Positions 7,559-58,008 of a DNA stretch of 58,922 nucleotides are shown in pieces. A model generated the notes under the pieces. That model did not search any database, was not told where the DNA came from, and worked only from the letters and a program-made list of their open reading frames with translations. The position numbers and the translations under genes are program-made. The DNA is taken from NCBI GenBank assembly GCA_045616885.1, contig JAZLHS010000011.1:1-58922 (forward strand), in the 5' to 3' direction. Source of the stretch: Selenomonadaceae bacterium (GTDB taxonomy: Bacteria > Bacillota > Negativicutes > Selenomonadales > Selenomonadaceae). Within the stretch, counting starts at the first letter, position 1, and each line of letters opens with the position of its first letter.

Positions 7559-7691
7559 GGAATAACAGTCTGACAGAAACTCGCTCCCGCTCATTTATTC
7601 ACGCAACGGTACTAAGCTCCTGCTTCATATGCTTATTCGCAGGTCGCTAAGTACCGGCGTTCATAATGGTTTCTTTTCAGACAGTTATTCC
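7559..7691 (-). repeat. LHR copy C (inverted relative to B)
   Basis: The reverse complement reads GGAATAACTGTCTGAAAAGAAACCATTATGAACGCCGGTACTTAGCGACCTGC...GCAGGAGCTTAGTACCG...GTTTCTGTCAGACTGTTATTCC. Confidence 0.85.
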
Positions 7692-13279: not shown

Positions 13280-13430
13280 TAATATAAAACCAACGGCATA
13301 ACTACCTGTAAAGAAACCATTTATTCACGCCGCCACTTGGCGACCTGCAAGCAAGCATGCGCAGCAGGAGCTTAGTGGCGCTGCGCGAATAACTGAACGC
13401 GAGTGTGTTTCTGTCAGGCAGTTATGCCGT
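13280..13430 (+). repeat. LHR copy E
   Basis: Outer arms 13293-13308 ACGGCATAACTACCTG and 13415-13430 CAGGCAGTTATGCCGT. The upper stem is CGCCACT/AGTGGCG. Followed by TTTTTG. Confidence 0.85.
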
Positions 13431-45955: not shown

Positions 45956-47113
45956 TCAAAGCCTATTTTTATCAAACGCGGTCTTAGCCTGACGGCTGCC
46001 CCATTCGTCATCTTCCGCAATGCCTTCTACATACCAGTCCATCCGGGAGATGATTGCCTGATCGCTGAGATTATGCCCGACGGGAATTCTTATATTTCCC
46101 CGGTTGTCCTTCACCGGGCCATAGAAAACATCCCGGTTTGTGTAGCGCAGCTGCCGTCCGACATTCTCGATTCGGGAGCGGCTGTCTCCCTTCACCGTCA
46201 GATTTATCAGCAGCCGCATATTCTCATCGATGGAGGCGAAGCGACAGCCGGGGGTAAATCGTCCTTCCAGCGCATCTTCAAGCAGACTGCGAATAAATGG
46301 CTCACTCTTCCAGATGACCGTGCCCAGCAGTACATCTCCATAATGTGCCTGCTGGTCGAGACACATACCTATAGCTTTTATGCCTCGGCGACGGCAGATG
46401 CTCAGCACCTCACGATATGGATTGACCTGCGTCACCACATCGACGGGATGCGCGGAGAGTACTCTCTCACAGGCGGCTGCCACCTTTGCTTCATCGTTAA
46501 AGGTATTCGTCCAGATTATATGTATCTTTGCATCAGGGCGAATTTTCCTTATACCCAGTGCCAGAGCATTGACCGACGTATTGATGACCGGCTGTGGCAC
46601 CGGTGCTACGATTGCTATATCTCCGGTCTTAGACTCGGAGGCGGCCAGCATACCGGCCTGATACTGAGCCTGATACATTCGGACGAAGAGCCCGCAGACA
46701 TTTGGAAACGTCCTCTCACCATAGCCGGTGTAAAACTTTACGTTTGGGTAGGCATCACTGACCTGAGCCATATCGATTGGCTGACGGACTCCCATACTGA
46801 AGATTATATCCGCCTGATCCTGATTAACCATCTTGTCCACAGCCGCCCCAAAGGAGCCATCATTGCTGTGCGCGTAATCCATAAAGACAAAGCGGCAGTT
46901 CATGTCGCTTATCTCCTCGAAGGTCTTCATCAGGGTCTCATTCCAGCCCCCATCATGACGACTTCCTTCAAAGATGACTCCGACCACTGTCTCGCGCTTC
47001 CGGAACATTTCCATCAGCCCGCCGCTGTTATTCAGCCAGTAGTAGGAGCAGGCAAAAGCCGCTGCACAGAAGGCAATGAGCAGCAGGGAGATTCCCGCCA
47101 TTATCTTCTTCAC
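45956..47113 (-). CDS. membrane-anchored BMP-family (PnrA/Med-like) periplasmic binding protein
   Basis: 385 aa. N-terminal TM anchor, then a BMP-like fold pattern (VGVIFEGSRHDGGWNE...). The GTG start overlaps the stop of the upstream sensor gene (GTGA at 47110-47113). An alternative ATG lies at 47101. Confidence 0.65.
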   Translation of the reverse strand: MKKIMAGISLLLIAFCAAAFACSYYWLNNSGGLMEMFRKRETVVGVIFEGSRHDGGWNETLMKTFEEISDMNCRFVFMDYAHSNDGSFGAAVDKMVNQDQADIIFSMGVRQPIDMAQVSDAYPNVKFYTGYGERTFPNVCGLFVRMYQAQYQAGMLAASESKTGDIAIVAPVPQPVINTSVNALALGIRKIRPDAKIHIIWTNTFNDEAKVAAACERVLSAHPVDVVTQVNPYREVLSICRRRGIKAIGMCLDQQAHYGDVLLGTVIWKSEPFIRSLLEDALEGRFTPGCRFASIDENMRLLINLTVKGDSRSRIENVGRQLRYTNRDVFYGPVKDNRGNIRIPVGHNLSDQAIISRMDWYVEGIAEDDEWGSRQAKTAFDKNRL

Positions 47114-49377
47114 TGACGGTCACCTCCGTATACGATTTCCTCGTACTCCAGCACCGTCACCGGTCTGGAGCAGCAGAAGCCCTGCACCATAGCGCAGTTC
47201 GTCGCCTTCAGCACATTTCGCTCGGCATTCGTGTCTACCCCGTTGACGATTATCTGTATGTCCATGTGCCCTGCCATCTCTACCAGATCCGACAGCAGCT
47301 GTATGGATTTTTCCGTCTCCGGATCCACGGTGGTCGGTGACGCCTGCAATACCTGACCGGTTTCCACCGTATTCATCACCGTCAGCCGGCCGAAAGCGGA
47401 TTTATCTACCTTCAGGCGTGATACCGGCAGGTCTTTCAGCTCCGGCAGCAAACCACCGTCAAAGCCGAAGTCTGAAACGGTGACGGCAAAGCCGGCCGCC
47501 CCCAGCTTCCGGACTGCTTCCTTTACCGTCTCCGACTGGAGCAGGAAAGCGGACTCTTTCACGTCTATCATCAGGTACGACGGCTCCACTTCGTAGAGCT
47601 TCATTATCCTGGTAATCTCCTCAATGAGATTGCTCCGTACCAGCAGTGCATGGGACAGTCTTACTGCTATCGGATGTACCCGGCGGCCGTCATTCAGCCA
47701 GCGTCTTATAATATGGCAGGCGGAGTCCAGCATAAACTTATCCAGCCTCGTCTGCCGCTTGCTTTCCTCCGGGTTGTCCAGCAATGCCTGAACATCGAGG
47801 ATTCCGTACTTTGAGTGATTCCAGCGCATCATCAGTTCGCTGCCGGCCCACTCGCCTGTAGCCATTGCTTGCATGGGCTGGAGAAGCGGCTGAAATTCTC
47901 TCTGAATGAACGCCTCCTCAAAATCGTCTCGAAGCGTCCGCTTTCTGGTGAGCTCGGCACTTACATTGCTGTCGAACATCACTACCAGATTTCTGTCAGC
48001 AGTCCGGTTCTTCTTTTGACGGCGAGCTGCCTCGCAGGCGGCGACTGCCCGGCTGTACCCCTCGTCCATTGTCAGATTCTCTGCCATACTGGCCGCACCG
48101 CCGGTAACGGTAAGAGGATACTTGCTGGAGGTCTCGGTGATAAGCTTGCAGAGAGCCATCAGCTTCGCCTGCGTGCCGGAATGCTCATAGGTATACAGCA
48201 GGAATCGGTCGCCGGAAGCTCTGGCCAGACTGTCTTCTGCATCTACGGCCTGCTCCAAGGCTATCGCTATCTTTCGCAGCAGGCTGTCACCGTATTCGAT
48301 GCCCATGATTGAATTCACTGCGCCGAAGGAATCAATATCAAAGAGCGCCAGCACAGCATTTCGCTTATTCGGATCCTTTTCCTTTTCCTGTCTGAGCTTC
48401 TCCCATTTCGGCAAGCCGGTGAAAGAATCTATGTAGGCTACCTTCAGCAGCTCTTCCCGTCGATGCTCTTCTACCCGGATGATGTAGAAGAATGCCACGA
48501 TGAACAGGAGCGCCAGCATGATAAATGTTCCCGCTGTGAAGAGTATCACTACGGTCATAGTTTCCCGCATGGCAGACTGCGGTACCAGCAGACCGGTGTA
48601 CCAGCCGCGAAGTATCCGGAAGGGGGCCGCCGCAAAATACTGAGTCTCACCGCCGCAGTCTACGCGGGCGATGGCTCGCTGCCCACGATACAGTGACCAA
48701 TAAAGGCGACCTATCTCATCAGCATTCTCTATGAGCCGCAGTTCTCTCACCACCGCCGCATCTTCCGGCGTCATCTTCATGGGGAATATATAGGTATGAC
48801 GGTCTTCCGACACCATCATGGTCTGTCCGAGCAGCGGCAGCGTGCTGGCGAAGAGAGCCTCGTCCAGCTCCTGTCCGGAGAGTAAGCCGTATACAACACC
48901 GGCTACATTGTCGCCCCGGATGATGGGCACCGCCAGCAGTAGCGAAGTAGTCTGACTCGCCTCTCCGGCTCGTACATACTCGGCAACGCGATGACCGTGG
49001 AAAGCATCCTGCAGGAAAGTCCTGGCGGTCTCCGGCAGCTGCGCACCGAATATCTCCCGGCCATCAATTGAAGCTGCTCCGATGTATCCCATGCGGGAGA
49101 GATGATCATCCTGACTGATGTAAACCTCCATAGCGCGATGGGAATTCTCAGCCAGCAGGAAGGAAGCCAGAGCCCGAAGGTGGACGAAATATGTTTCCAG
49201 TCGTCCGTTGATAACATCCTCCTGCTGGGCTGCCATATCAGCCAGCCGGTCATCTATCTCTTTGCGAACCACATTCACCAGAAGAATCTGCAGCAGCATG
49301 ATACTGACGAAAACAACCGCAGCAAGAGCCGCCAGCGGCTTGAATATATGAGAACGTCCGGTTGCCCACAGTCTCAT
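47110..49377 (-). CDS. sensor protein: TM, Cache-like periplasmic domain, TM, GGDEF (SGDRF), EAL-like (degenerate)
   Basis: 755 aa. GGDEF landmarks DSFTGLPKW and GIEYGDSLL, with the motif position reading ASGDRFLLY. The EAL region reads GSELMMRW, DVKES, SDFGFDGG, KVDKS, so several catalytic positions differ from consensus. Confidence 0.75.
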   Translation of the reverse strand: MRLWATGRSHIFKPLAALAAVVFVSIMLLQILLVNVVRKEIDDRLADMAAQQEDVINGRLETYFVHLRALASFLLAENSHRAMEVYISQDDHLSRMGYIGAASIDGREIFGAQLPETARTFLQDAFHGHRVAEYVRAGEASQTTSLLLAVPIIRGDNVAGVVYGLLSGQELDEALFASTLPLLGQTMMVSEDRHTYIFPMKMTPEDAAVVRELRLIENADEIGRLYWSLYRGQRAIARVDCGGETQYFAAAPFRILRGWYTGLLVPQSAMRETMTVVILFTAGTFIMLALLFIVAFFYIIRVEEHRREELLKVAYIDSFTGLPKWEKLRQEKEKDPNKRNAVLALFDIDSFGAVNSIMGIEYGDSLLRKIAIALEQAVDAEDSLARASGDRFLLYTYEHSGTQAKLMALCKLITETSSKYPLTVTGGAASMAENLTMDEGYSRAVAACEAARRQKKNRTADRNLVVMFDSNVSAELTRKRTLRDDFEEAFIQREFQPLLQPMQAMATGEWAGSELMMRWNHSKYGILDVQALLDNPEESKRQTRLDKFMLDSACHIIRRWLNDGRRVHPIAVRLSHALLVRSNLIEEITRIMKLYEVEPSYLMIDVKESAFLLQSETVKEAVRKLGAAGFAVTVSDFGFDGGLLPELKDLPVSRLKVDKSAFGRLTVMNTVETGQVLQASPTTVDPETEKSIQLLSDLVEMAGHMDIQIIVNGVDTNAERNVLKATNCAMVQGFCCSRPVTVLEYEEIVYGGDRQ

Positions 49378-49703: not shown

Positions 49704-50366
49704 TCAGCCGCGTCTGGCCGGACAATCGAGTCTGTTACATTCGCTGCAGTTGTGTTCCGTCTTCTTGCAGTCCTCCGTCCTCAGTCCCAGTCCGACGACG
49801 GCCGTGACAGACTTTCGAGGAAGAAGCATTAGACTCTCGGTGAGTGATACTCCGATTTTTTCGCAGCCGGCATACCGCACGATATCACGCTGAGCTGTCA
49901 GCGGCCAATCGCCGTAGCCGGGTGAGAATCGCCAGCGAGGCGCCATGCCCATCCTTTCCGCCAGACGGTCTATCTCCTTCTCCATTGCATCTGCCGTCTG
50001 CTCCACCGCCTGAGTCGCTGCCGCATCCAGCAGCACCGAGTAGGCGTAGCGGCCGGCGGCAAAGCTCTCCGTCACCGCCTGCTCGATACCGCCGCCGACT
50101 GTCACCGTCATCAGTACCAGACGACAGCAGCCCTTCAGATGATTGCGAATACTGCTGCCTTCCAGCACCAGCTTACCGTCATCGGCAGTTCCCGTCGAAT
50201 CATCGTATTCATATATCTCGTAGTTGCCCTTCGGCAAAGCCAGCAGCTGCGCCCCATCGCAGGCCTCCTGTATCAGCTTCGGGTCAAAGGGGCTTTGGCG
50301 AAGTCCCGCATACCGGCGAACCTCGTCGGCGTTTATCTCACCCAAGGGCGGATTGAATATCGGCAT
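49704..50366 (-). CDS. stand-alone methionine synthase (MetH) activation-domain-like protein
   Basis: 220 aa. RFSPGYGDWPL resembles the AdoMet-binding RxxxGY motif of the MetH reactivation module. C-terminal CKKTEHNCSECNRLDCPARRG. Confidence 0.55.
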   Translation of the reverse strand: MPIFNPPLGEINADEVRRYAGLRQSPFDPKLIQEACDGAQLLALPKGNYEIYEYDDSTGTADDGKLVLEGSSIRNHLKGCCRLVLMTVTVGGGIEQAVTESFAAGRYAYSVLLDAAATQAVEQTADAMEKEIDRLAERMGMAPRWRFSPGYGDWPLTAQRDIVRYAGCEKIGVSLTESLMLLPRKSVTAVVGLGLRTEDCKKTEHNCSECNRLDCPARRG

Positions 50367-50500: not shown

Positions 50501-51766
50501 TTAGGCCTTAGCCTCACGGTCGGCCTTCGCTTCTCTTGCCTTCGTCAGCGAAGAGCTTCCCTTATCCTCTACCTTCAGCGGCAGACGCAAATGGACTCTC
50601 GTGCCGCGTCCCGGCGTACTGGCAACCGATATCTGAGCACCGATTATCTTCGCCCGCTCACGCATACCCGTAATGCCGAAGAAGCCCTCGCCGTCCGATA
50701 CCTTCATCCGCTCCTCGGCTTCACCGATATCGAAGCCGGCGCCCTGATCCTCGATGAGGACCGAGACGGCTGCCGTCGTAAAGAGCATCCGCACCTGAGC
50801 TACATTCTGCCCGCTGTGCCGCTCTACATTGTTAAGAGCCTCCTGAATGATACGGAAAATTCCCGTATTCACATGACTGGGCAGTGACACCTCCGTGCCC
50901 TCCACCGTAAAGTCGGCCTTCAGCATGTGACGCTCATCCATCTTCGCCACCAGCTGACGGACAGCGGCCACCAGACCAAGGTCATCCAGCGACATAGGAC
51001 GCATATCGAAGATTATCTGACGAATGTCGCCGAGGCAGCTCTTCAGCTGGCGACGAAGCTCCTGTATTCCCGCTCTTGCCTCTTCCGGGTCAATGGGAAT
51101 GAGGCGCTCGCAGATGGACGCCTGAAACAGCAGATTGGCCACATCCTGAGCCGGGCCATCGTGAATCTCTCGGGATACCCGATAGCGCTCATCCTCCTGA
51201 GCCTTGATTATAACAGCCGACAGGAAACGATTGTTGGACGCTTTCTCCATCTGGGCCACTACATCGGATATCTGAGAAGACAGATAACCAAGCACAGAGG
51301 ATATCCTCATGGCCAGCTGCTCTGCTCCGATGATGGTCTTCTGCATGTGATAGAGGCGAATCTCGCAGTCGTCACGCTTGCGGCGGAGCTGACGCTCCTC
51401 CTCACGAGCCACTCCGAGACGAACCTGAACATCTTTTACGGCATCATAAGTCGCTTTGATTTTTTCTTCGCTGAAGTTCCGGAAGTTTGATGACACTCGG
51501 ACGAGATTCTGCTTCTCCAGCTGCTCGGCTTTCTCCAGCTTATCGACTCGCTCTATGGTCTCCGCCGTTTCTCTGCGAATAGTCTCCAGCTCGGCTCTGG
51601 TATTTTCTACCTCGCGGCGAGCCGCTTCATACACTTCAAATATCTGGCCCTTGCTATCCTCTATTGTGTTGACCGTATTACGAAGGATGTCATTCAGCAT
51701 CCCTACGCTGGGCTTGCCATCCTCTACCGGTGCTGTCTCCGGTTTGCTGTTTTTCAATTCGGCCAT
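50501..51766 (-). CDS. cytoplasmic sensor histidine kinase, DegS-like (HisKA_3 + HATPase)
   Basis: No TM segment. Long coiled-coil N-terminus. H-box VSREIHDGPAQDVANL. HATPase N/G boxes (QEALNNVERH, DQGAGF). The ATG at 51766 follows GAGGAAACC. The ORF opens at 51811. Confidence 0.85.
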   Translation of the reverse strand: MAELKNSKPETAPVEDGKPSVGMLNDILRNTVNTIEDSKGQIFEVYEAARREVENTRAELETIRRETAETIERVDKLEKAEQLEKQNLVRVSSNFRNFSEEKIKATYDAVKDVQVRLGVAREEERQLRRKRDDCEIRLYHMQKTIIGAEQLAMRISSVLGYLSSQISDVVAQMEKASNNRFLSAVIIKAQEDERYRVSREIHDGPAQDVANLLFQASICERLIPIDPEEARAGIQELRRQLKSCLGDIRQIIFDMRPMSLDDLGLVAAVRQLVAKMDERHMLKADFTVEGTEVSLPSHVNTGIFRIIQEALNNVERHSGQNVAQVRMLFTTAAVSVLIEDQGAGFDIGEAEERMKVSDGEGFFGITGMRERAKIIGAQISVASTPGRGTRVHLRLPLKVEDKGSSSLTKAREAKADREAKA

Positions 51767-51840
51767 GGTTTCCTCGATTCCTCGGCAGTCTCTTGCGCCG
51801 CCGCCAGACAATATCTCCTACATATAGTAGGTCAGCTTTT

Positions 51841-51868
51841 ATTATAGCGTAAACCTATGATTTTTCAA
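51841..51868 (-). promoter_or_regulatory. putative promoter of the DegS-like kinase gene
   Basis: Minus strand TTGAAA (51868-51863), 16 nt, TATAAT (51846-51841). About 75 nt upstream of the ATG at 51766. Confidence 0.55.
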
Positions 51869-51962
51869 CACCCCATTTATCGCATATTGGATAGAAAATT
51901 AGTCCATGATTAGGAGAATTGTCCCCACATATATGAGACTATTTGCATTTGCCGGAAACGCA

Positions 51963-51991
51963 TTGACAAATCTATCCAATCTCCCTATAAT
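51963..51991 (+). promoter_or_regulatory. consensus sigma-70 promoter for the radical SAM gene cluster
   Basis: TTGACA (51963-51968), 17-nt spacer, TATAAT (51986-51991). It lies about 60 nt upstream of the rSAM start. Confidence 0.7.
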
Positions 51992-52049
51992 TGTAACGTT
52001 AGTTTATAGAACAGTTTTTGTGGTATGAGTGGTAAAAGAGGTTTTTTTC

Positions 52050-53141
52050 GTGGAATACAATGTTTACATGACAAACGACTGCAATCTCAACTGCGCCTAT
52101 TGCTCAGTTCTGCTTGATTGCGAGAAGAATGGCATCCCCATCCATCCAACTTATGAAGTTGAGAAGCTGGCTGCCTACATAGATAAAACCCAGCAGAAGT
52201 ACAACGACAACGAAGTTGTCATTTTCTTCTTCGGCGGCGAACCCTCTATGGAGTACGACCGTATCCGCAAGTATATGGAATGCTTCGACAAGACACTCCG
52301 TCCGAAATATGACCTGAAGTACATTCTTCACACCAACGGACTTCTCCTGAACGAAATCCCCGATGATGTGCTGGCCAAGCTTGACCTCTCCATGTATTCT
52401 CTCAACTATGAGATGTTCCCCCATGTAGGTCTGGCTGACTCCTACTTCCAGCGAGTCATGGACAACGCCCTCGAAGCGAAGGAGAAGAAGCCTTCCTTTG
52501 AAATCGTTGCTCGTCTCACCATCACTGAGAAGACCAGCTTCTTCAATGAGATAATGCAGGTCTATCCCTTCTTCGACATGGTCTACTGGCAGCTGGAGAA
52601 CACCCCGGCCTGGAAAGACCCGGAGTACTTCATCAAAACCTACAACTACGAGGTAAGCCTCGTCTTCCGTCACTGGCTGAAGGAGCTGAAGGCCGGACGC
52701 ATGCTGAAGTTCATTCCCTTCATGGCTGTCCTGAAGTTCATGTTCTTCCACGACAGAGACGACAATGAATTCCTCTGCGGCTACGACACTCACATGCTCT
52801 ATGTTCAGACCAACGGTAAGTGCTATGCCTGCTGTGACGCCATGGAGTCTCCCACCCACTACGTCGGTGACATCGAGAAGGGCTCCGAGTTCCGCGGCCT
52901 GAAGCTCTCCGACTTTGTCTGCAAGGACTGCGACTACCGCCGCATCTGCATGGGCCGCTGCGGCCGCATGCACCGCGAATTCACGCCGGAGCATATCGAC
53001 CACTATTGCCGGATGAACAAGCACACCTTCGACCTCTTCATCGAGCGCAAGGATGAGCTGGCACAGATTCTCAAGGAACATCCCGAATACGAGGCCATGC
53101 TCAGCGGCTGGGATCTGGACATCATGGAGTACACCTCCTGA
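52050..53141 (+). CDS. radical SAM enzyme with C-terminal SPASM-type auxiliary cluster motif
   Basis: CNLNCAYC (52080-52103). GGEP. C-terminal GKCYACC plus CKDCDYRRICMGRC (CX2CX5CX3C, 52920-52961). The GTG at 52050 lies 8 nt after AAAGAGG. The ORF opens at 52029, and an alternative ATG lies at 52068. Confidence 0.8.
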   Translation: MEYNVYMTNDCNLNCAYCSVLLDCEKNGIPIHPTYEVEKLAAYIDKTQQKYNDNEVVIFFFGGEPSMEYDRIRKYMECFDKTLRPKYDLKYILHTNGLLLNEIPDDVLAKLDLSMYSLNYEMFPHVGLADSYFQRVMDNALEAKEKKPSFEIVARLTITEKTSFFNEIMQVYPFFDMVYWQLENTPAWKDPEYFIKTYNYEVSLVFRHWLKELKAGRMLKFIPFMAVLKFMFFHDRDDNEFLCGYDTHMLYVQTNGKCYACCDAMESPTHYVGDIEKGSEFRGLKLSDFVCKDCDYRRICMGRCGRMHREFTPEHIDHYCRMNKHTFDLFIERKDELAQILKEHPEYEAMLSGWDLDIMEYTS

Positions 53142-53160
53142 TCAACACATAAAATTTAGC

Positions 53161-53192
53161 CCCCGATCCAGACAACGGATTGGGGACTTTTT
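53161..53192 (+). terminator. terminator-like hairpin between the rSAM and condensation genes
   Basis: CCCCGATCC-AGACAAC-GGATTGGGG (9 bp including one G-U), then ACTTTTTAT. Confidence 0.5.
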
Positions 53193-53237
53193 ATAGAACA
53201 GCGAAAACAGTAAAACTTAAAAGGATGAACGATAAGT

Positions 53238-54536
53238 ATGGAGCAGAAATATTATCCCCTCTCAAGAACCCAGAAGGAAATCATCTTCTTCGAGGATGAA
53301 TGCCCCGGCACAGCCATCAACAGTATCTGCGCCCTCTACCAGTGCGAGGGTGACTTCGCCGACACCATGGAAAAGGTCGTCAACAGTCTTGTCGAGCACG
53401 AGCAGTCTTTCCGCCTCCGGATGCACAAGACCGAAGAAGGCGAATGGGTACAGTATGAAGTCCCCTATGAATACTTTGCTGTCCCTCGCTATCCGGAGGC
53501 CGTGACCTACGAAAAGATGCAGGAGATAGCTCAGGCAAAGTCCGAAGAGCCCTTCGAGGTGGCCGACAGCCCCCTGTATAAGTTCGAAATATTCCAGGGA
53601 GAAGGCATCACCTACATCTGCTGCACTCTCCATCATATCATTAACGACGGCTGCGGCATGGCTCTGCTTGGTATCATGCTCACCTACGGCTGGCGTGCCG
53701 TCGAGGGCATCGCTCCCTACGAATGGGTACATCATCGCTTCACCGACTTCATCGAGAAGGAAAACTCCCCGGCTAAGCAAAAGCGTCGGGAAAAGGACGC
53801 CGCCTACTGGCAGGAAAAATTTGCCGACTGGAACGGCCCTGCCTGCATCAAGCCCGGCTTTGAAGCTCCGGATGATGCCTACGACGGCACCCGCATTGAA
53901 CGCCAGCTCACCGACGAAGAGGACGAGGAAGTCAACGCCTTCTTCGAAAAGCACGGCATCTCCTCCGCCGTCCTCTTCCAAACTGCTCTCATCATTTATC
54001 TTTTCACGAAGAATCCTGACCGCCGCCGCATCGACATCGGCAACATGATAATGAACCGTCCCACTGCCGCCGACAAGGCTGCTATCGGCAACTATGCCGC
54101 CGAAGTCATGCTCTGCGTCCCGGTAGCTCCCGACATGACCGTCATGGAGCTCATCGACGCTGTCGGTCAGGCCAATAAGGACTCCTATCGCCACAGCAGC
54201 TATCTCCACGACGATATCGTAGAATATCTGTCTGAAAAGTGCGGTGAAGAAGTCTCTATCTGCGACATCGAGTTCGGCTTCATGCCTTCTATGGTTGAGC
54301 AGCTGCTGGAAGATGTAGGCGGCGAGCTCCCGCTCACCGGTGAAGCCTTCAGTGCCGGAATCCCGGAGACTACCATGGAATACATGATATACAACCTTAC
54401 CGAAGGGCCCCTGCTTCTGAAGATGGACTACCGTCTCAATATGTTCTCCGCCGAAGAAGCCCAGCAGCTGTTTGATGACATCTGGAGCATTGCTCAGCGC
54501 TGTACCAGGGAGAACTGCACCCTGAAGGAATTCTAA
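53238..54536 (+). CDS. free-standing condensation (NRPS C-type) domain protein
   Basis: 432 aa. N-terminal YPLSRTQKEI and an intact HHxxxDG (HHIINDG, 53631-53651). No A, T or TE domains in the same ORF. Confidence 0.8.
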   Translation: MEQKYYPLSRTQKEIIFFEDECPGTAINSICALYQCEGDFADTMEKVVNSLVEHEQSFRLRMHKTEEGEWVQYEVPYEYFAVPRYPEAVTYEKMQEIAQAKSEEPFEVADSPLYKFEIFQGEGITYICCTLHHIINDGCGMALLGIMLTYGWRAVEGIAPYEWVHHRFTDFIEKENSPAKQKRREKDAAYWQEKFADWNGPACIKPGFEAPDDAYDGTRIERQLTDEEDEEVNAFFEKHGISSAVLFQTALIIYLFTKNPDRRRIDIGNMIMNRPTAADKAAIGNYAAEVMLCVPVAPDMTVMELIDAVGQANKDSYRHSSYLHDDIVEYLSEKCGEEVSICDIEFGFMPSMVEQLLEDVGGELPLTGEAFSAGIPETTMEYMIYNLTEGPLLLKMDYRLNMFSAEEAQQLFDDIWSIAQRCTRENCTLKEF

Positions 54537-54560
54537 AAAGACGGTGTAACCGTCTTTTCC
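54536..54560 (+). terminator. intrinsic terminator after the condensation-domain gene
   Basis: AAAGACGG-TGTAA-CCGTCTTT followed by TCC, with the T-tract partly within the stem. Confidence 0.6.
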
Positions 54561-54561
54561 C

Positions 54562-54710
54562 TAATGTAAAAGCAGGGTATTACTGTCTGTAAAGAAACTA
54601 TTATGAACGCCGGCACTTGACGACTGACGAGCAAGCATGCGAAGTCAGAGTCTATGTGCCGCTGCGTGAATAAATAAACGCAAGTGAGTTTCTGTCAGAC
54701 AGTAATCCCG
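54562..54710 (+). repeat. LHR copy F
   Basis: Outer arms 54575-54589 GGGTATTACTGTCTG and 54696-54709 CAGACAGTAATCCC. The upper stem is CGGCAC/GTGCCG. Confidence 0.85.
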
Positions 54711-54735
54711 AAAGGATACATACATCGGATAAAAT

Positions 54736-56424
54736 ATGGCTTTGTTTTCCGAAAAATGCTATGTCTGGGAGAAGTTTAAGGGCATCTTCCTCGCCGCCAC
54801 CATGGCCATGCTCTGCGAGTACCTTGTATTGCTTTCCGATGAAATCATCATCGGAAACATCTGGGGCGAGCTGGCCATTTCCGGCGTAGCTCTGGCCACT
54901 CCCTTCTTCTCAGTCATCGTCTTCGTCTCCTACATGATTGCCGGTGGCACCGGTGTCCTCATGTCCGCCGCCGACGGCCGGGGAGACAGACCCCTGTCCG
55001 ACCGCTATATCAGTCAGGCCATCCAGCTGACAGCCATATCATCTTTGGTTCTTTTCGTCCTGTACATCACAGCTGGCTCCGGCATACTGCGCCTGCTCGG
55101 CTCAGATGAGGCTGTCATCTCCTACGCTCAGCAATATTTTTCCTGTCTGGCCTGGCTGCCATTAGTTCAGATATTTATCGCCGTCCTCTATACGGTCGTC
55201 CTCTATCGAGGCGGTGAGACAGCCTGCAACATCAGTACCGCCGTCATGGTAGTCCTGAACATCTCCCTCTCCGTTTACCTCGGTCTGGAGATGGGACTTG
55301 CCGGCGTCAGTCTTGCCACCGTAATCGCCAATCTGGCGGGACTTGTCCCTCTCCTGTGGTTTCTGACCACAAAGCAGGGACATATCCGCTTTACTTTCGG
55401 CCTCATTAAAAAGGACGTCATTGAAATATTCCGACTGAGCTTCGCTGAGTCGGTCGTCTTTCTCCTTATCGCCGGTCAGCAGTTCGTCCTCAACTGGTAC
55501 CTGCTGGCCAATTACTCGGTAGATGCCGTCGTCACCTGTACGGTAGTCCTCTATTTGGTCGTCCTTCTGATGACTCTCTTTGAGGGACTATGCGAAATAC
55601 TCATCCCGGTGGTCAGCGTCTACTGGGCCGAGAAGAACTACATCGGCAATGTTAAGGTTCTCCGCCTGCTGGAGCGGGTAGGATTGGCCGAAACAGTCGT
55701 CATCACGGTGGTGCTTCTGGCCGGAGCCGATTTCCTGCCGCTGCTCTTTGGTGTTCGCTCACCGGAGCTGCTGACCGACACTGCCGCGGCCATTCGCCTT
55801 TTTGTTCCGGCTGTCTGGTTCTTCTGCATCGTAAAGCTCTACGCAGTCTACTATATCTGCATCGAGAGGATAAACCTCTCTGTATGGTTTTCCCTCTGGC
55901 AGCTCTTCCTTGTCCCGGTACTGTTTACCATCGTCGGCTGTGAAGCCTTCGGTCTCTATGGCGGGTGGGCTGGAATGACTCTGGCTCAGATAGTCACCTG
56001 GGCGATGCTGAAGTTTTACTGTCGGCAGCACTATCCCGGCACGGCAGGTCTCTCCCATCTATCTCTTGCTGCTCTGAACAGGCAGTTCTTACGAAACATC
56101 CCGGCCGACGAATTACACTGGCGAGCCGTCTGCGGCGAAATCTCCAACCTTGATTTCCTGACCGGACTTTCTCTCGCTGCAAGGCAGGAGCTGAACGATA
56201 CGCTGTCAGCCGCCAACCGCCTCATCAACGACTTTTTCCGCAGCGATGACATGGCAGAGGTAAGTCTCCTCTGTCTTGAGGACAAGATATCCCTCATCCT
56301 CCGCTGCCACGGCATGAAGCCCGACAGTCAGGAAAATGATTTTCACCCCTTCATCTATTCCCCGGCTGCCGGCGATGACCGTTTCATCGCCACAATTTTC
56401 ACCCAGTCTAAACCGAACAATTAA
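54736..56424 (+). CDS. MATE/MOP-superfamily exporter with a C-terminal soluble extension of about 115 aa
   Basis: 562 aa. About 12 TM over the first 440 aa or so, with MATE-like pairs of 6 TM. A hydrophilic tail follows from about 56068. Confidence 0.7.
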   Translation: MALFSEKCYVWEKFKGIFLAATMAMLCEYLVLLSDEIIIGNIWGELAISGVALATPFFSVIVFVSYMIAGGTGVLMSAADGRGDRPLSDRYISQAIQLTAISSLVLFVLYITAGSGILRLLGSDEAVISYAQQYFSCLAWLPLVQIFIAVLYTVVLYRGGETACNISTAVMVVLNISLSVYLGLEMGLAGVSLATVIANLAGLVPLLWFLTTKQGHIRFTFGLIKKDVIEIFRLSFAESVVFLLIAGQQFVLNWYLLANYSVDAVVTCTVVLYLVVLLMTLFEGLCEILIPVVSVYWAEKNYIGNVKVLRLLERVGLAETVVITVVLLAGADFLPLLFGVRSPELLTDTAAAIRLFVPAVWFFCIVKLYAVYYICIERINLSVWFSLWQLFLVPVLFTIVGCEAFGLYGGWAGMTLAQIVTWAMLKFYCRQHYPGTAGLSHLSLAALNRQFLRNIPADELHWRAVCGEISNLDFLTGLSLAARQELNDTLSAANRLINDFFRSDDMAEVSLLCLEDKISLILRCHGMKPDSQENDFHPFIYSPAAGDDRFIATIFTQSKPNN

Positions 56425-56460
56425 TTTCTAAAAATATTAGCTCCGAGAGAAGGCATAAGA

Positions 56461-58008
56461 ATGACCCCCAGAAGACGCAAGAAAAAGCAGCGTAATCCGC
56501 TGCGCTTGGTTCTTCCCCTCTTTGTTATCATCCTGCTGGCCGCTACCGGCTACGCCTACCACTTCCTCTTCGGCTCCATCACGCCCGACCGGCAGGTGAG
56601 TCAGGCTGACAAAGGCAAAATACTGGAAGGCGGCTCTGCTGTAAACATCCTCCTCATGGGTATCGACCATCGAGCCAATGACGTAGGTCGCAGCGATACC
56701 CTCGTCCTTCTCACCGTCGACATGAAGAACGAAAAGGCCGCCATCCTCTCCATTCCCCGCGACACTCGCGTGAACATTGCCGGCAACGGCTACGACAAAA
56801 TAAACCACACCTACGCCTTCGGCGGTCACGAGCTCACCTGCTCCACCGTCAAAGAGCTTCTGGGGGCACCCATCGACTACTACGCGCTCCTCGATACAGG
56901 AGCCTTCGTAGATGTCATTGACACCCTCGGCGGTGTTGATATCACTGTGGAGCGTCCCATGCACTATGAAGACCCCTGGGACGACAACGGCGGTCTCGTC
57001 ATCGACTTCCAGCCCGGCCGTCAGCACTTAGACGGACAGAAATCAATAGAGTATGTCCGCTATCGTGACGAGCAGGGTGATTTGGGTCGCATCGGCCGTC
57101 AGCAAAATTTCGCCCGGGAGCTCATCTCTCAGACCAAGCTGACCGAGCTTCTCGCCAAGCTCCCCGCCCTGCTGAAAACAGCCGACGGTGCCGTCGTCAC
57201 CAACCTGACTGTCAGCGAGCGCTGCCGTCTGGCAACTTTCCTTGCCGGACTTAAGAAGGAATCCTTCAATTCCTCCATGCTCCCCGGTCGCCCCGCCTAT
57301 CTGGACTCCATCAGCTACTGGCTACCGGATATAAAGCGAGCCCGTCTCCAGCTGGCTGACGCTATGGGCATTGAGCCGAGCGCCACATACATTTCCCACG
57401 CTGCTACCGACTCTGCTGACTACGAGGCAGAGCTGCCCAGAGGCTTCTCCGTGCCCGATATCATGTCGGCGGTTCAGCCCGGCGGATACGGCAAAAAGGA
57501 TAAGAAAAAAGAAAACAAGGGCAAAGCCCCCGACAACAAACCGAAGGAAGCCAAGCCTGCCGACAAGGAAAAGGACAAGGCAAAGGCAGCCGATAAAAAG
57601 AAAAATGACGGCGTAATGGCGAAGAACAATCCTGAAACAAAGCCCTCCGCCATGGAGAACACCACCAAGAACGACCGCCGCAGTGAAGACACCCTAGCCG
57701 CACAGACGGAAAAGAGTCAGACAGCAGCAGCCACTAAGGCAGCAGCTAAAACACCGGTAAAAATAACCGTTGTGAACTCCACCGATATTAACGGTGCCGG
57801 TGCCCGAGTCGCCGCCATTCTGGCTGAGCGGGGCTTTGAGGTCGTGGAAGTATCCACCGGCAAAAACAAGCTGCAGGAGACTCGCATCGTTGTTCCCGAC
57901 GCCAATGTCAGCGAATTCTACGGCCTGCCCTTCCCCTGCATCATCATCGGCGGCGGCGAGCCGGGAGAAGCCTTTGTGAATATTGGCGCTGATTTTAAGA
58001 TGCAGTAA
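56461..58008 (+). CDS. LCP (LytR-CpsA-Psr) family protein with a Lys-rich linker and LytR_C-like end
   Basis: 515 aa. N-terminal TM. LCP core (NILLMGIDHR...RSDTLVLL...SIPRDT...INHTYAFGG). KKDKKKENKGK low-complexity linker. C-terminal VKITVVNSTDINGAGARVAAILAERGF. Confidence 0.85.
   Translation: MTPRRRKKKQRNPLRLVLPLFVIILLAATGYAYHFLFGSITPDRQVSQADKGKILEGGSAVNILLMGIDHRANDVGRSDTLVLLTVDMKNEKAAILSIPRDTRVNIAGNGYDKINHTYAFGGHELTCSTVKELLGAPIDYYALLDTGAFVDVIDTLGGVDITVERPMHYEDPWDDNGGLVIDFQPGRQHLDGQKSIEYVRYRDEQGDLGRIGRQQNFARELISQTKLTELLAKLPALLKTADGAVVTNLTVSERCRLATFLAGLKKESFNSSMLPGRPAYLDSISYWLPDIKRARLQLADAMGIEPSATYISHAATDSADYEAELPRGFSVPDIMSAVQPGGYGKKDKKKENKGKAPDNKPKEAKPADKEKDKAKAADKKKNDGVMAKNNPETKPSAMENTTKNDRRSEDTLAAQTEKSQTAAATKAAAKTPVKITVVNSTDINGAGARVAAILAERGFEVVEVSTGKNKLQETRIVVPDANVSEFYGLPFPCIIIGGGEPGEAFVNIGADFKMQ

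Follow-up and report, generated by a model that had tools for sequence, protein, structure and literature searches.

A radical SAM/SPASM enzyme, a stand-alone condensation domain and a MATE-type transporter may form a reduced biosynthesis and export cassette in a Selenomonadaceae bacterium

What might a radical S-adenosylmethionine (SAM) enzyme with a SPASM domain, a free-standing condensation (C) domain of the non-ribosomal peptide synthetase (NRPS) type and a MATE-type exporter do together, when neither a precursor peptide nor a carrier protein is encoded beside them? This question is raised by a stretch of 58,922 nucleotides from a Selenomonadaceae bacterium (GenBank assembly GCA_045616885.1, contig JAZLHS010000011.1, positions 1 to 58,922 of the forward strand), referred to here in its full length as the window. 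An earlier note on this DNA (the original prediction) had singled out the three genes and had found no biosynthetic class in which to place them. We propose that the trio is a reduced version of a conserved cassette for the biosynthesis and export of small molecules, in which the C domain would transfer an acyl group to a free amine, the radical SAM enzyme would add a radical tailoring step and the transporter would export the product; we give this reading a probability of about 45%. The features on which it is built are the following.

51963..51991, plus strand: sigma-70-type promoter TTGACA-17-TATAAT, 5' of the radical SAM gene, with a 12/12 match to the consensus
52050..53141, plus strand: radical SAM/SPASM enzyme, 363 aa, from a conserved ATG start (Pfam Radical_SAM)
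52080..52103, plus strand: CX3CX2C motif CNLNCAYC (C11/C15/C18; residues 11-18), read from the sequence
52776..53009, plus strand: SPASM cysteines C243-X12-G256-X4-C261, C291-X2-C294-X5-C300-X3-C304 and C320, placed by alignment
53238..54536, plus strand: stand-alone NRPS-type C domain, 432 aa (Pfam Condensation)
53631..53651, plus strand: HHxxxDG active-site motif HHIINDG (H132-G138), read from the sequence
54736..56040, plus strand: MATE/MOP-type transporter core, residues 1 to ~435 (Pfam MatE, NCBIfam, hydropathy)
56041..56424, plus strand: soluble C-terminal domain of the transporter, ~127 aa (hydropathy, orthologue motifs)

When the sequence was read again, the three plus-strand open reading frames (ORFs) downstream of the promoter (52029-53141, 53238-54536 and 54736-56424) and every motif quoted in the original prediction were recovered at the same coordinates, as was its perfect promoter, the sole 12/12 match within 51700-56600. 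In a related Selenomonadaceae metagenome-assembled genome (MAG), represented by a contig of GCA_030523645.1 (locus L171) that is the source of the closest named homologue of the MATE protein (80% identity), both promoter hexamers and the 17-nt spacing are kept and the spacer and flanks have diverged. The radical SAM frame is open from a GTG at 52029; it is the ATG at 52050 (MEYN...) that is conserved as the start, in 24/24 aligned homologues as well as in L171. The window has no gene for adenylation, for a carrier or for a thioesterase, and a phmmer search of its complete six-frame translation for NRPS adenylation-thiolation modules or carrier proteins returned nothing besides the C domain itself. 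Its intergenic regions also hold no conserved precursor ORF, as had been suspected: the 40-codon ORF at 51906-52028 partly coincides with the promoter, and L171 does not preserve it.

About 40 loci carrying members of the radical SAM family were gathered from representative genomes, metagenomes and exact-protein look-ups, and their contents were compared by a phmmer screen and all-against-all clustering. The radical SAM, C-domain and MATE genes were found together in at least 10 independent loci from at least three phyla. This bears out the proposal that they are a functional unit and is the opposite of the scattered homologues by which the original prediction would have been refuted. Their order is shuffled between lineages, and some clusters are fuller than that of the window:

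L001/L023 and L006, Desulfobulbus MAGs: MATE followed by C on one strand, diverging from the radical SAM gene
L024, Alphaproteobacteria MAG: C, carrier, radical SAM, MATE
L025, Christensenellaceae MAG: C, radical SAM, MATE
L165, reached like the loci listed below it through contigs of the stand-alone C-domain relatives: radical SAM, C
L166/L167: STAS, dCache/HAMP/PP2C, HATPase_c_2, C, AMP-binding, PP-binding, radical SAM, MATE
L169: MATE, C, PP-binding, AMP-binding, radical SAM
L170: PP2C, radical SAM, HATPase_c_2, STAS, MATE, C
L173-L175, short contigs: C adjoining MATE

Genes in these clusters often overlap or abut (e.g. L024, L025 and L166). Between the window and the Desulfobulbus loci, the radical SAM enzymes share 57% identity, the C domains 32% and the MATE proteins 33%. 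For the AMP-binding proteins encoded in-cluster (474-496 aa), the highest scores are those with MenE and long-chain fatty-acid CoA ligase models; they bear no resemblance to amino-acid adenylation domains. The in-cluster carriers, which have 78-88 aa in the full form, score as acyl carrier proteins (ACPs); the carrier of L024 has 74 aa, an LGLDSL serine motif and a Pfam PP-binding match at 7e-12. As predicted from these matches, the full form of the cassette (L166/L167 and L169) consists of an acyl ligase, an ACP-like carrier, the C domain, a 361-aa radical SAM/SPASM enzyme and a ~565-aa MATE protein with a soluble tail, and the window, L171, the Desulfobulbus loci and L025 represent an apparently reduced form without ligase and carrier. 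No carrier or adenylation gene was found by phmmer in the window or the other reduced loci. The statement that a carrier protein is missing thus holds for the window and fails for its relatives, and because these encode an ACP-like carrier together with a MenE/FadD-like acyl ligase, the C domain is not an oddity lacking a thioester donor.

The clusters do not amount to an NRPS assembly line, as no amino-acid adenylation domain was found in the window or its relatives and the relatives carry a single ACP-like carrier. A conserved small ORF is likewise lacking in the ~10 compact relatives, where the ACP gene is the only small gene, and no precursor peptide was found in the 764-bp gap of L169. 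Outside the Selenomonadaceae it is STAS, RsbW-like and PP2C genes of partner switching that recur as regulators; they lie just downstream in the Desulfobulbus loci, and the set is absent from L169. The GyrA and GyrB genes that recur near some loci are housekeeping genes, and their presence was dismissed as coincidence.

The gene order in L171 is that of the window: a GGDEF/EAL gene, a gene for a 220-aa protein, a DegS-like kinase gene and then, divergently, the radical SAM, C-domain, MATE and LCP (LytR-CpsA-Psr) genes. This synteny allowed selection to be compared along the locus through the ratio of nonsynonymous to synonymous substitution rates (dN/dS). The radical SAM enzyme (98.1% aa identity, dN/dS 0.016, dS 0.60) and the C domain (97.0%, dN/dS 0.020, dS 0.82) are held more tightly than the product of the flanking kinase gene (88.1%, dN/dS 0.064) or LCP gene (82.0%, dN/dS 0.120); the values for the MATE protein are 79.6% and 0.139. 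Since dN/dS is this low at a dS of 0.60-0.82, both enzymes are functional and unusually constrained, that is, under strong purifying selection.

The C domain has the profile, the active-site motif and the predicted fold of an NRPS condensation domain. Pfam Condensation (PF00668) matches residues 3-416 at 1.7e-41 (142.8 bits against a cut-off of 30.6), and among 17 members of the family the Asp of HHxxxDG is kept in 17/17 and the second His in at least 90%. The AlphaFold2 (AF2) model, with a predicted local distance difference test (pLDDT) value of 90.7, adopts the canonical NRPS C fold, and Foldseek places it at template-modelling (TM) scores of 0.80-0.84 to the C domains of SrfA-C, CDA-C1, LgrA and the RzmA starter module. 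Lipo-initiation C domains (CDA-C1 and RzmA) are included in these top matches. In a word-index search the protein had looked like a near-orphan with one close homologue, an impression overturned by an exhaustive HMMER search of 1.84 billion representatives: among the best 150 matches, 13 are stand-alone relatives of 416-446 aa with 28-36% identity, and nearly all other matches listed are multi-modular NRPSs with 18-25% identity.

The radical SAM enzyme belongs to the radical SAM superfamily and, within it, to the SPASM subfamily. Pfam Radical_SAM (PF04055) scores 38.7 bits against a cut-off of 29.5, and with the NCBIfam SPASM domain model TIGR04085 the score stays slightly short of the cut-off (25.4 bits against 27). 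In an alignment of 25 sequences C11, C15 and C18 vary little or not at all, the full seven-Cys SPASM set (with CX2CX5CX3C at 52920-52961) is invariant in 25/25 and the C-terminal tail E-x-T-P is conserved. A homologue search returned 275 proteins; the 120 that were listed are mostly of ~361 aa, with 42-57% identity. At the level of curated families the enzyme has no home. Its best NCBIfam model, TIGR04084, is matched over the full length (1.5e-45) at 155.7 bits against a cut-off of 225, the anaerobic sulfatase-maturating enzyme (anSME) model TIGR03942 at 47.2 against 349 and the PapB model at 66 against 340; every score obtained with the NCBIfam maturase-family models was far under cut-off. 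The AF2 model (pLDDT 89.8) predicts a partial TIM barrel, and this superposes on anSME and CteB. The nearest structures in Foldseek are anSME (TM 0.66-0.69, E 3e-12), followed by ChlB, CteB and TigE, to which a comparison by sequence pointed as well.

SPASM enzymes are normally peptide or protein maturases, and this expectation had been carried over to the window. It is not borne out by what surrounds the gene. Because the radical-SAM Cys motif starts at residue 11, there is no room for an N-terminal recognition element (RRE) of the kind found in maturases of RiPPs (peptides made by the ribosome and modified after translation), and none was found there; no tightly packed relative has a precursor ORF. 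By the two marks of a RiPP-type maturase, an RRE and an adjacent precursor gene, the enzyme would not be classed as one. Membership of the anSME clade, which the original prediction had regarded as fatal to its view, is contradicted, for all the structural proximity, by the TIGR03942 score and by the lack of a sulfatase gene among the loci examined.

The third protein (54736-56424, 562 aa) has the profile and the roughly 12 hydrophobic segments expected of a MATE transporter. Pfam MatE (PF01554) matches at 2e-14 (53.9 bits against a cut-off of 24.9), the NCBIfam MATE efflux model aligns to residues 18-423 under equivalog cut-offs, and hydropathy gives 11-12 hydrophobic segments, none of them past residue 435. 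Weak MurJ-model matches were also obtained for the cluster transporters, whose best matches are MATE efflux models. Orthologues of 556-577 aa are present in every relative cluster, and in those that are cluster-associated (L006, L024, L025, L166, L169 and L170) the tail of ~130 aa is conserved, with the motifs IECT...ILRDSG...NR. This tail is presumably cytoplasmic. Three weak and independent signals hint at a degenerate GHKL/HATPase_c_2-like fold: hhalign gave P 0.0035 (probability 9%), the HtpG N-domain E 0.14, and Pfam HATPase_c_2 E 0.054 in 1/7 members.

The setting described so far is not the commonest one for this radical SAM family, and the original prediction was incomplete in this respect. 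In most members (~28 loci) the radical SAM gene is followed by a convergent gene for a ~490-aa protein, with a tyrosine recombinase gene on either side. The hosts are Lachnospiraceae, Oscillospiraceae, Acutalibacteraceae, Anaeroplasmataceae, Bacteroidota, Heliobacterium and others (L002:7899-11241; also L003, L004, L007, L011-L017, L019-L022, L087, L091, L097 and L098). The convergent protein has an N-terminal TIR domain (profile match at 1e-30 to AbTIR/TcpB) and a C-terminal domain that matches GNAT models under threshold in 8/16 members (best 9e-4); a profile search of PDB sequences with the latter gave only N-myristoyltransferase at E ~0.3. Perfect or near-perfect inverted repeats of 22-207 bp were present in 16/16 cassettes tested, ending from a few to ~100 bp upstream of both start codons, and gut contigs that are 99.9% identical show one cassette in either orientation. 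Inverted repeats, recombinase and the two orientations suggest phase variation. In L002-L004 the radical SAM-TIR pair lies amid AAA_21/RloB, GmrSD and reverse-transcriptase genes. In a neighbour-joining tree the trio-type radical SAM proteins form two adjacent groups nested within this diversity. The window cassette has no TIR gene, recombinase gene or flanking inverted repeats; within 51500-56900 the inverted repeats are short, imperfect and intragenic, and no inverton was found in the window.

Some members of the wider family have other neighbours. In L007 (11083-12744) and L008, genes for an APH-like kinase and a xylose-isomerase-like TIM barrel lie between the radical SAM and TIR genes. 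In the lineage of L018 (2884-7733; = L093), a glutathionylspermidine (GSP)-synthase-like ATP-grasp enzyme and a saccharopine-dehydrogenase-like protein are encoded near the radical SAM gene; an idea of polyamine chemistry drawn from these Sacchrp_dh and GSP-synthase neighbours was set aside because it rests on this single lineage. Archaeal radical SAM/SPASM relatives with 23-27% identity (L026-L030 and L100-L113), mostly from Bathyarchaeia, are presumably TIGR04084 proper. They have a conserved neighbourhood of their own, which in 11/19 loci contains a small ORF of 75-120 aa and a convergent gene for a URO-D-like protein of 359 aa.

We suggest the following scheme for the cassette. A carboxylic acid would be activated as a thioester, by the ligase and ACP in the full clusters; in the window a housekeeping acyl-ACP or acyl-CoA would serve as the donor, or genes at another place in the genome would supply it. 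The C domain would pass the acyl group to a free amine acceptor, and since each full cluster has one carrier, its chemistry would resemble that of VibH or of a starter C domain. The radical SAM/SPASM enzyme would carry out one radical step (a dehydrogenation, a decarboxylation or a cross-link) on the acceptor or the N-acyl product, the MATE protein would export the product, and in many lineages partner-switching proteins would regulate the system. The identities of the domains, their linkage across phyla, the strong purifying selection, the ligase and ACP of the relatives and the absence of an RRE or precursor are shown; how the steps are ordered, that the acceptor is a free amine, which radical reaction takes place and that the product is exported are our inferences. 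Of the two products that the original prediction had offered, an exported acyl-amino compound is still the best guess, and a modified peptide loses ground for want of an RRE and a precursor. The partners in other members of the radical SAM family (the GNAT-like domain and, in one lineage, the GSP-synthase-like ATP-grasp enzyme) may also be amide-forming enzymes, a parallel that we count in favour of the scheme.

Several observations weigh against this scheme. The closest solved structures to the radical SAM enzyme (anSME, ChlB, CteB and TigE) all act on peptides or proteins. The product, the substrate and the acceptor cannot be named from sequence alone, and as neither the window nor L171 has a ligase or a carrier, a donor has to be assumed. 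The radical SAM and C-domain genes are each followed by a terminator-like hairpin, so that co-transcription in this organism cannot be taken for granted. As for the sister architecture, the GNAT assignment of the alternative partner consists of sub-threshold matches only, and the convergent arrangement of the radical SAM gene and its partner inside an inverton could mean alternate rather than joint expression. A wider proposal, which we put forward tentatively as a less likely one, is that a radical SAM/SPASM enzyme and an N-acyltransferase together perform an undescribed two-enzyme chemistry that may have been put to two uses: an exported acylated signal or antibiotic regulated by partner switching (the type of the window) and a phase-variable, TIR NADase-like conflict cassette.

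Those same structural neighbours are the starting point for an explanation by peptide or protein maturation, in which the radical SAM enzyme would modify a distally encoded peptide or protein or a partner protein, the C domain would N-acylate it and the MATE protein would export a lipopeptide-like RiPP hybrid. The nearest structures and profiles (anSME, the ChlB-ChlA complex, CteB, TigE and PapB) do act on peptides or proteins, anSME likewise works without an RRE, and the conserved E-x-T-P tail of the family is consistent with such a role. We nevertheless consider this unlikely: apart from the missing RRE, the ~10 compact relatives have no conserved small ORF besides the ACP gene, the ORF upstream in the window is not kept in L171 and the scores lie far under the cut-offs of every maturase family. 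A role in conflict or defence, with the radical SAM family as the core of an immunity-type module that in the window is coupled to an acyltransferase and an exporter instead of a TIR effector, draws on the sister architecture, with its ~28 TIR-paired loci, the company of AAA_21/RloB, GmrSD and reverse-transcriptase genes in L002-L004, and the recombinase-linked inverted repeats of 16/16 cassettes, one of them found in both orientations. It appears rather improbable for the window, where the cassette is chromosomal, syntenic between species and devoid of TIR, recombinase and repeats. PADLOC-DB v2 matches only the generic radical SAM core of pVip (1e-10, residues 11-138) and neither the C domain nor the MATE protein, and the ligase, ACP and C-domain content of the closest relatives points to biosynthesis.

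The position of the LCP gene directly 3' of the MATE gene, shared by the window, L005, L171 and L172, invites a further explanation, that a polymer linked to lipid or bound to the wall is acylated by the C domain, flipped by the MOP protein and handled by the adjacent LCP ligase; the original prediction had mentioned modification of an envelope component. The weak MurJ-model matches of the transporters would fit, and the pairing of ligase and carrier recalls DltA/DltC. The DegS-like kinase and LCP genes are, however, kept beside the cassette within the Selenomonadaceae only, the LCP gene being absent in L006, L024, L025, L166, L169 and L170; the transporters match MATE efflux models best, no glycosyltransferase or polymerase genes are linked and the ligase is nearer to MenE/FadD than to DltA. 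An envelope role is for these reasons improbable in our view, and biosynthesis and export of a small acylated molecule remains the reading that we prefer.

The remaining features of the locus are the hairpins between the genes and the divergent neighbour.

53161..53195, plus strand: terminator-like hairpin and T run 3' of the radical SAM gene; the stem (53161-53185) has 9 pairs, 6 of them G-C
54536..54558, plus strand: terminator-like hairpin 3' of the C-domain gene, with perfect 10-nt inverted repeat arms
54575..54710, no strand assigned: long hairpin, a copy of a dispersed intergenic repeat (RNA fold z = -7.4)
50501..51811, minus strand: DegS-like histidine kinase, divergent neighbour (Pfam DegS, HisKA_3 and HATPase_c matches)

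A different hairpin occupies the same intergenic region between the radical SAM and C-domain genes in L171, and in L005 the stem of the hairpin at 54536-54558 is preserved through a compensatory change of G-C to A-T. The long hairpin that the original prediction had noted between the second and third genes is real and belongs to an unrelated dispersed repeat of ~135 nt, with three copies in the window (54575-54710, ~7568-7685 on the minus strand and ~13306-13422 on the plus strand). Since the core of this repeat (8300-8380 in L171) lies there between the radical SAM and C-domain genes, a gap other than that of the window, the long hairpin is not part of the cassette. It matched no Rfam family, and Rfam returned nothing at gathering thresholds for the whole window or at E<=1 for 51800-54800. 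In its sequence behaviour the repeat is like a small mobile element of the miniature inverted-repeat transposable element (MITE) or repetitive extragenic palindrome (REP) kind.

The DegS-like kinase had been correctly recognized, is syntenic in L171 and is absent beside cassette relatives of other lineages; we treat it as a neighbour whose functional tie to the cassette is unproven. Its gene is followed on the 3' side not by a response regulator gene but by the gene for the 220-aa protein (49704-50366, minus strand), which weakly matches the methionine-synthase B12 activation domain. Next comes a 755-aa ORF (47110-49377, minus strand), whose syntenic counterpart in L171 encodes the GGDEF/EAL protein.

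All the parts of the cassette are known kinds of protein. Neither the way in which they are combined nor the two genomic settings are described, and full-text searches of the searchable library turned up no account of the trio or of the sister cassette with the TIR/GNAT-like protein. The original prediction that no biosynthetic class could be named has held up, the pVip core being the sole match in PADLOC and no NCBIfam model being matched above cut-off. If the proposed reading is true, the cassette would be a compact pathway of three to five genes, amenable to experiment, in anaerobes of gut and sediment, joining NRPS-type acyl transfer to SPASM radical chemistry without a peptide precursor and so widening the roles expected of SPASM enzymes. 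It would also be a cluster type that genome-mining tools probably misfile or miss, with a transporter whose fused, regulatory-looking domain would be tied to partner-switching signalling. In gut bacteria the sister inverton would represent a new phase-variable system, and the cassette of the window a constitutive chromosomal relative in which the shared radical SAM enzyme could be studied.

How does the cassette compare with known systems? On the radical SAM side, the likeness to anSME lies in a similar size, a radical-SAM motif at the extreme N-terminus, the full seven-Cys SPASM set and the structural match; identity is only 17-20%, the TIGR03942 score (47.2 against 349) is far too low, there is no linked sulfatase and the genomic partners are others. 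TIGR04084 (the AF0577 type) is the best-scoring curated model for the enzyme of the window, yet its score (155.7 against 225) stays under the cut-off and the archaeal relatives adjoin a URO-D-like protein. On the side of acyl transfer, the C domain shares its fold and HHxxxDG motif (TM 0.80-0.84) with VibH of vibriobactin synthesis, CDA-C1 with its ACP and the RzmA starter C domain, in all of which an amine receives an acyl group from the thioester of a carrier protein or of CoA. As in lipo-initiation systems, the relatives of the cassette carry a dedicated acyl ligase and ACP. Unlike VibH, CDA-C1 and RzmA, they have no amino-acid adenylation domain, second carrier or thioesterase, and the C domain, with only 21-25% identity to those of NRPSs, is always paired with a SPASM radical SAM enzyme and a MATE protein bearing an extra domain. 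In mycobacteria, a fatty acyl-AMP ligase (FAAL/FadD) loads a carrier, a C-superfamily enzyme (PapA) transfers the acyl group and a dedicated exporter (MmpL) is encoded alongside. The full cassette has the same division of labour, by analogy only: its exporter is of the MATE and not the RND type, it has no polyketide synthase and a radical SAM enzyme is present. We take its C domain to be nearer to the genuine C domains of NRPSs than to enzymes of the PapA type.

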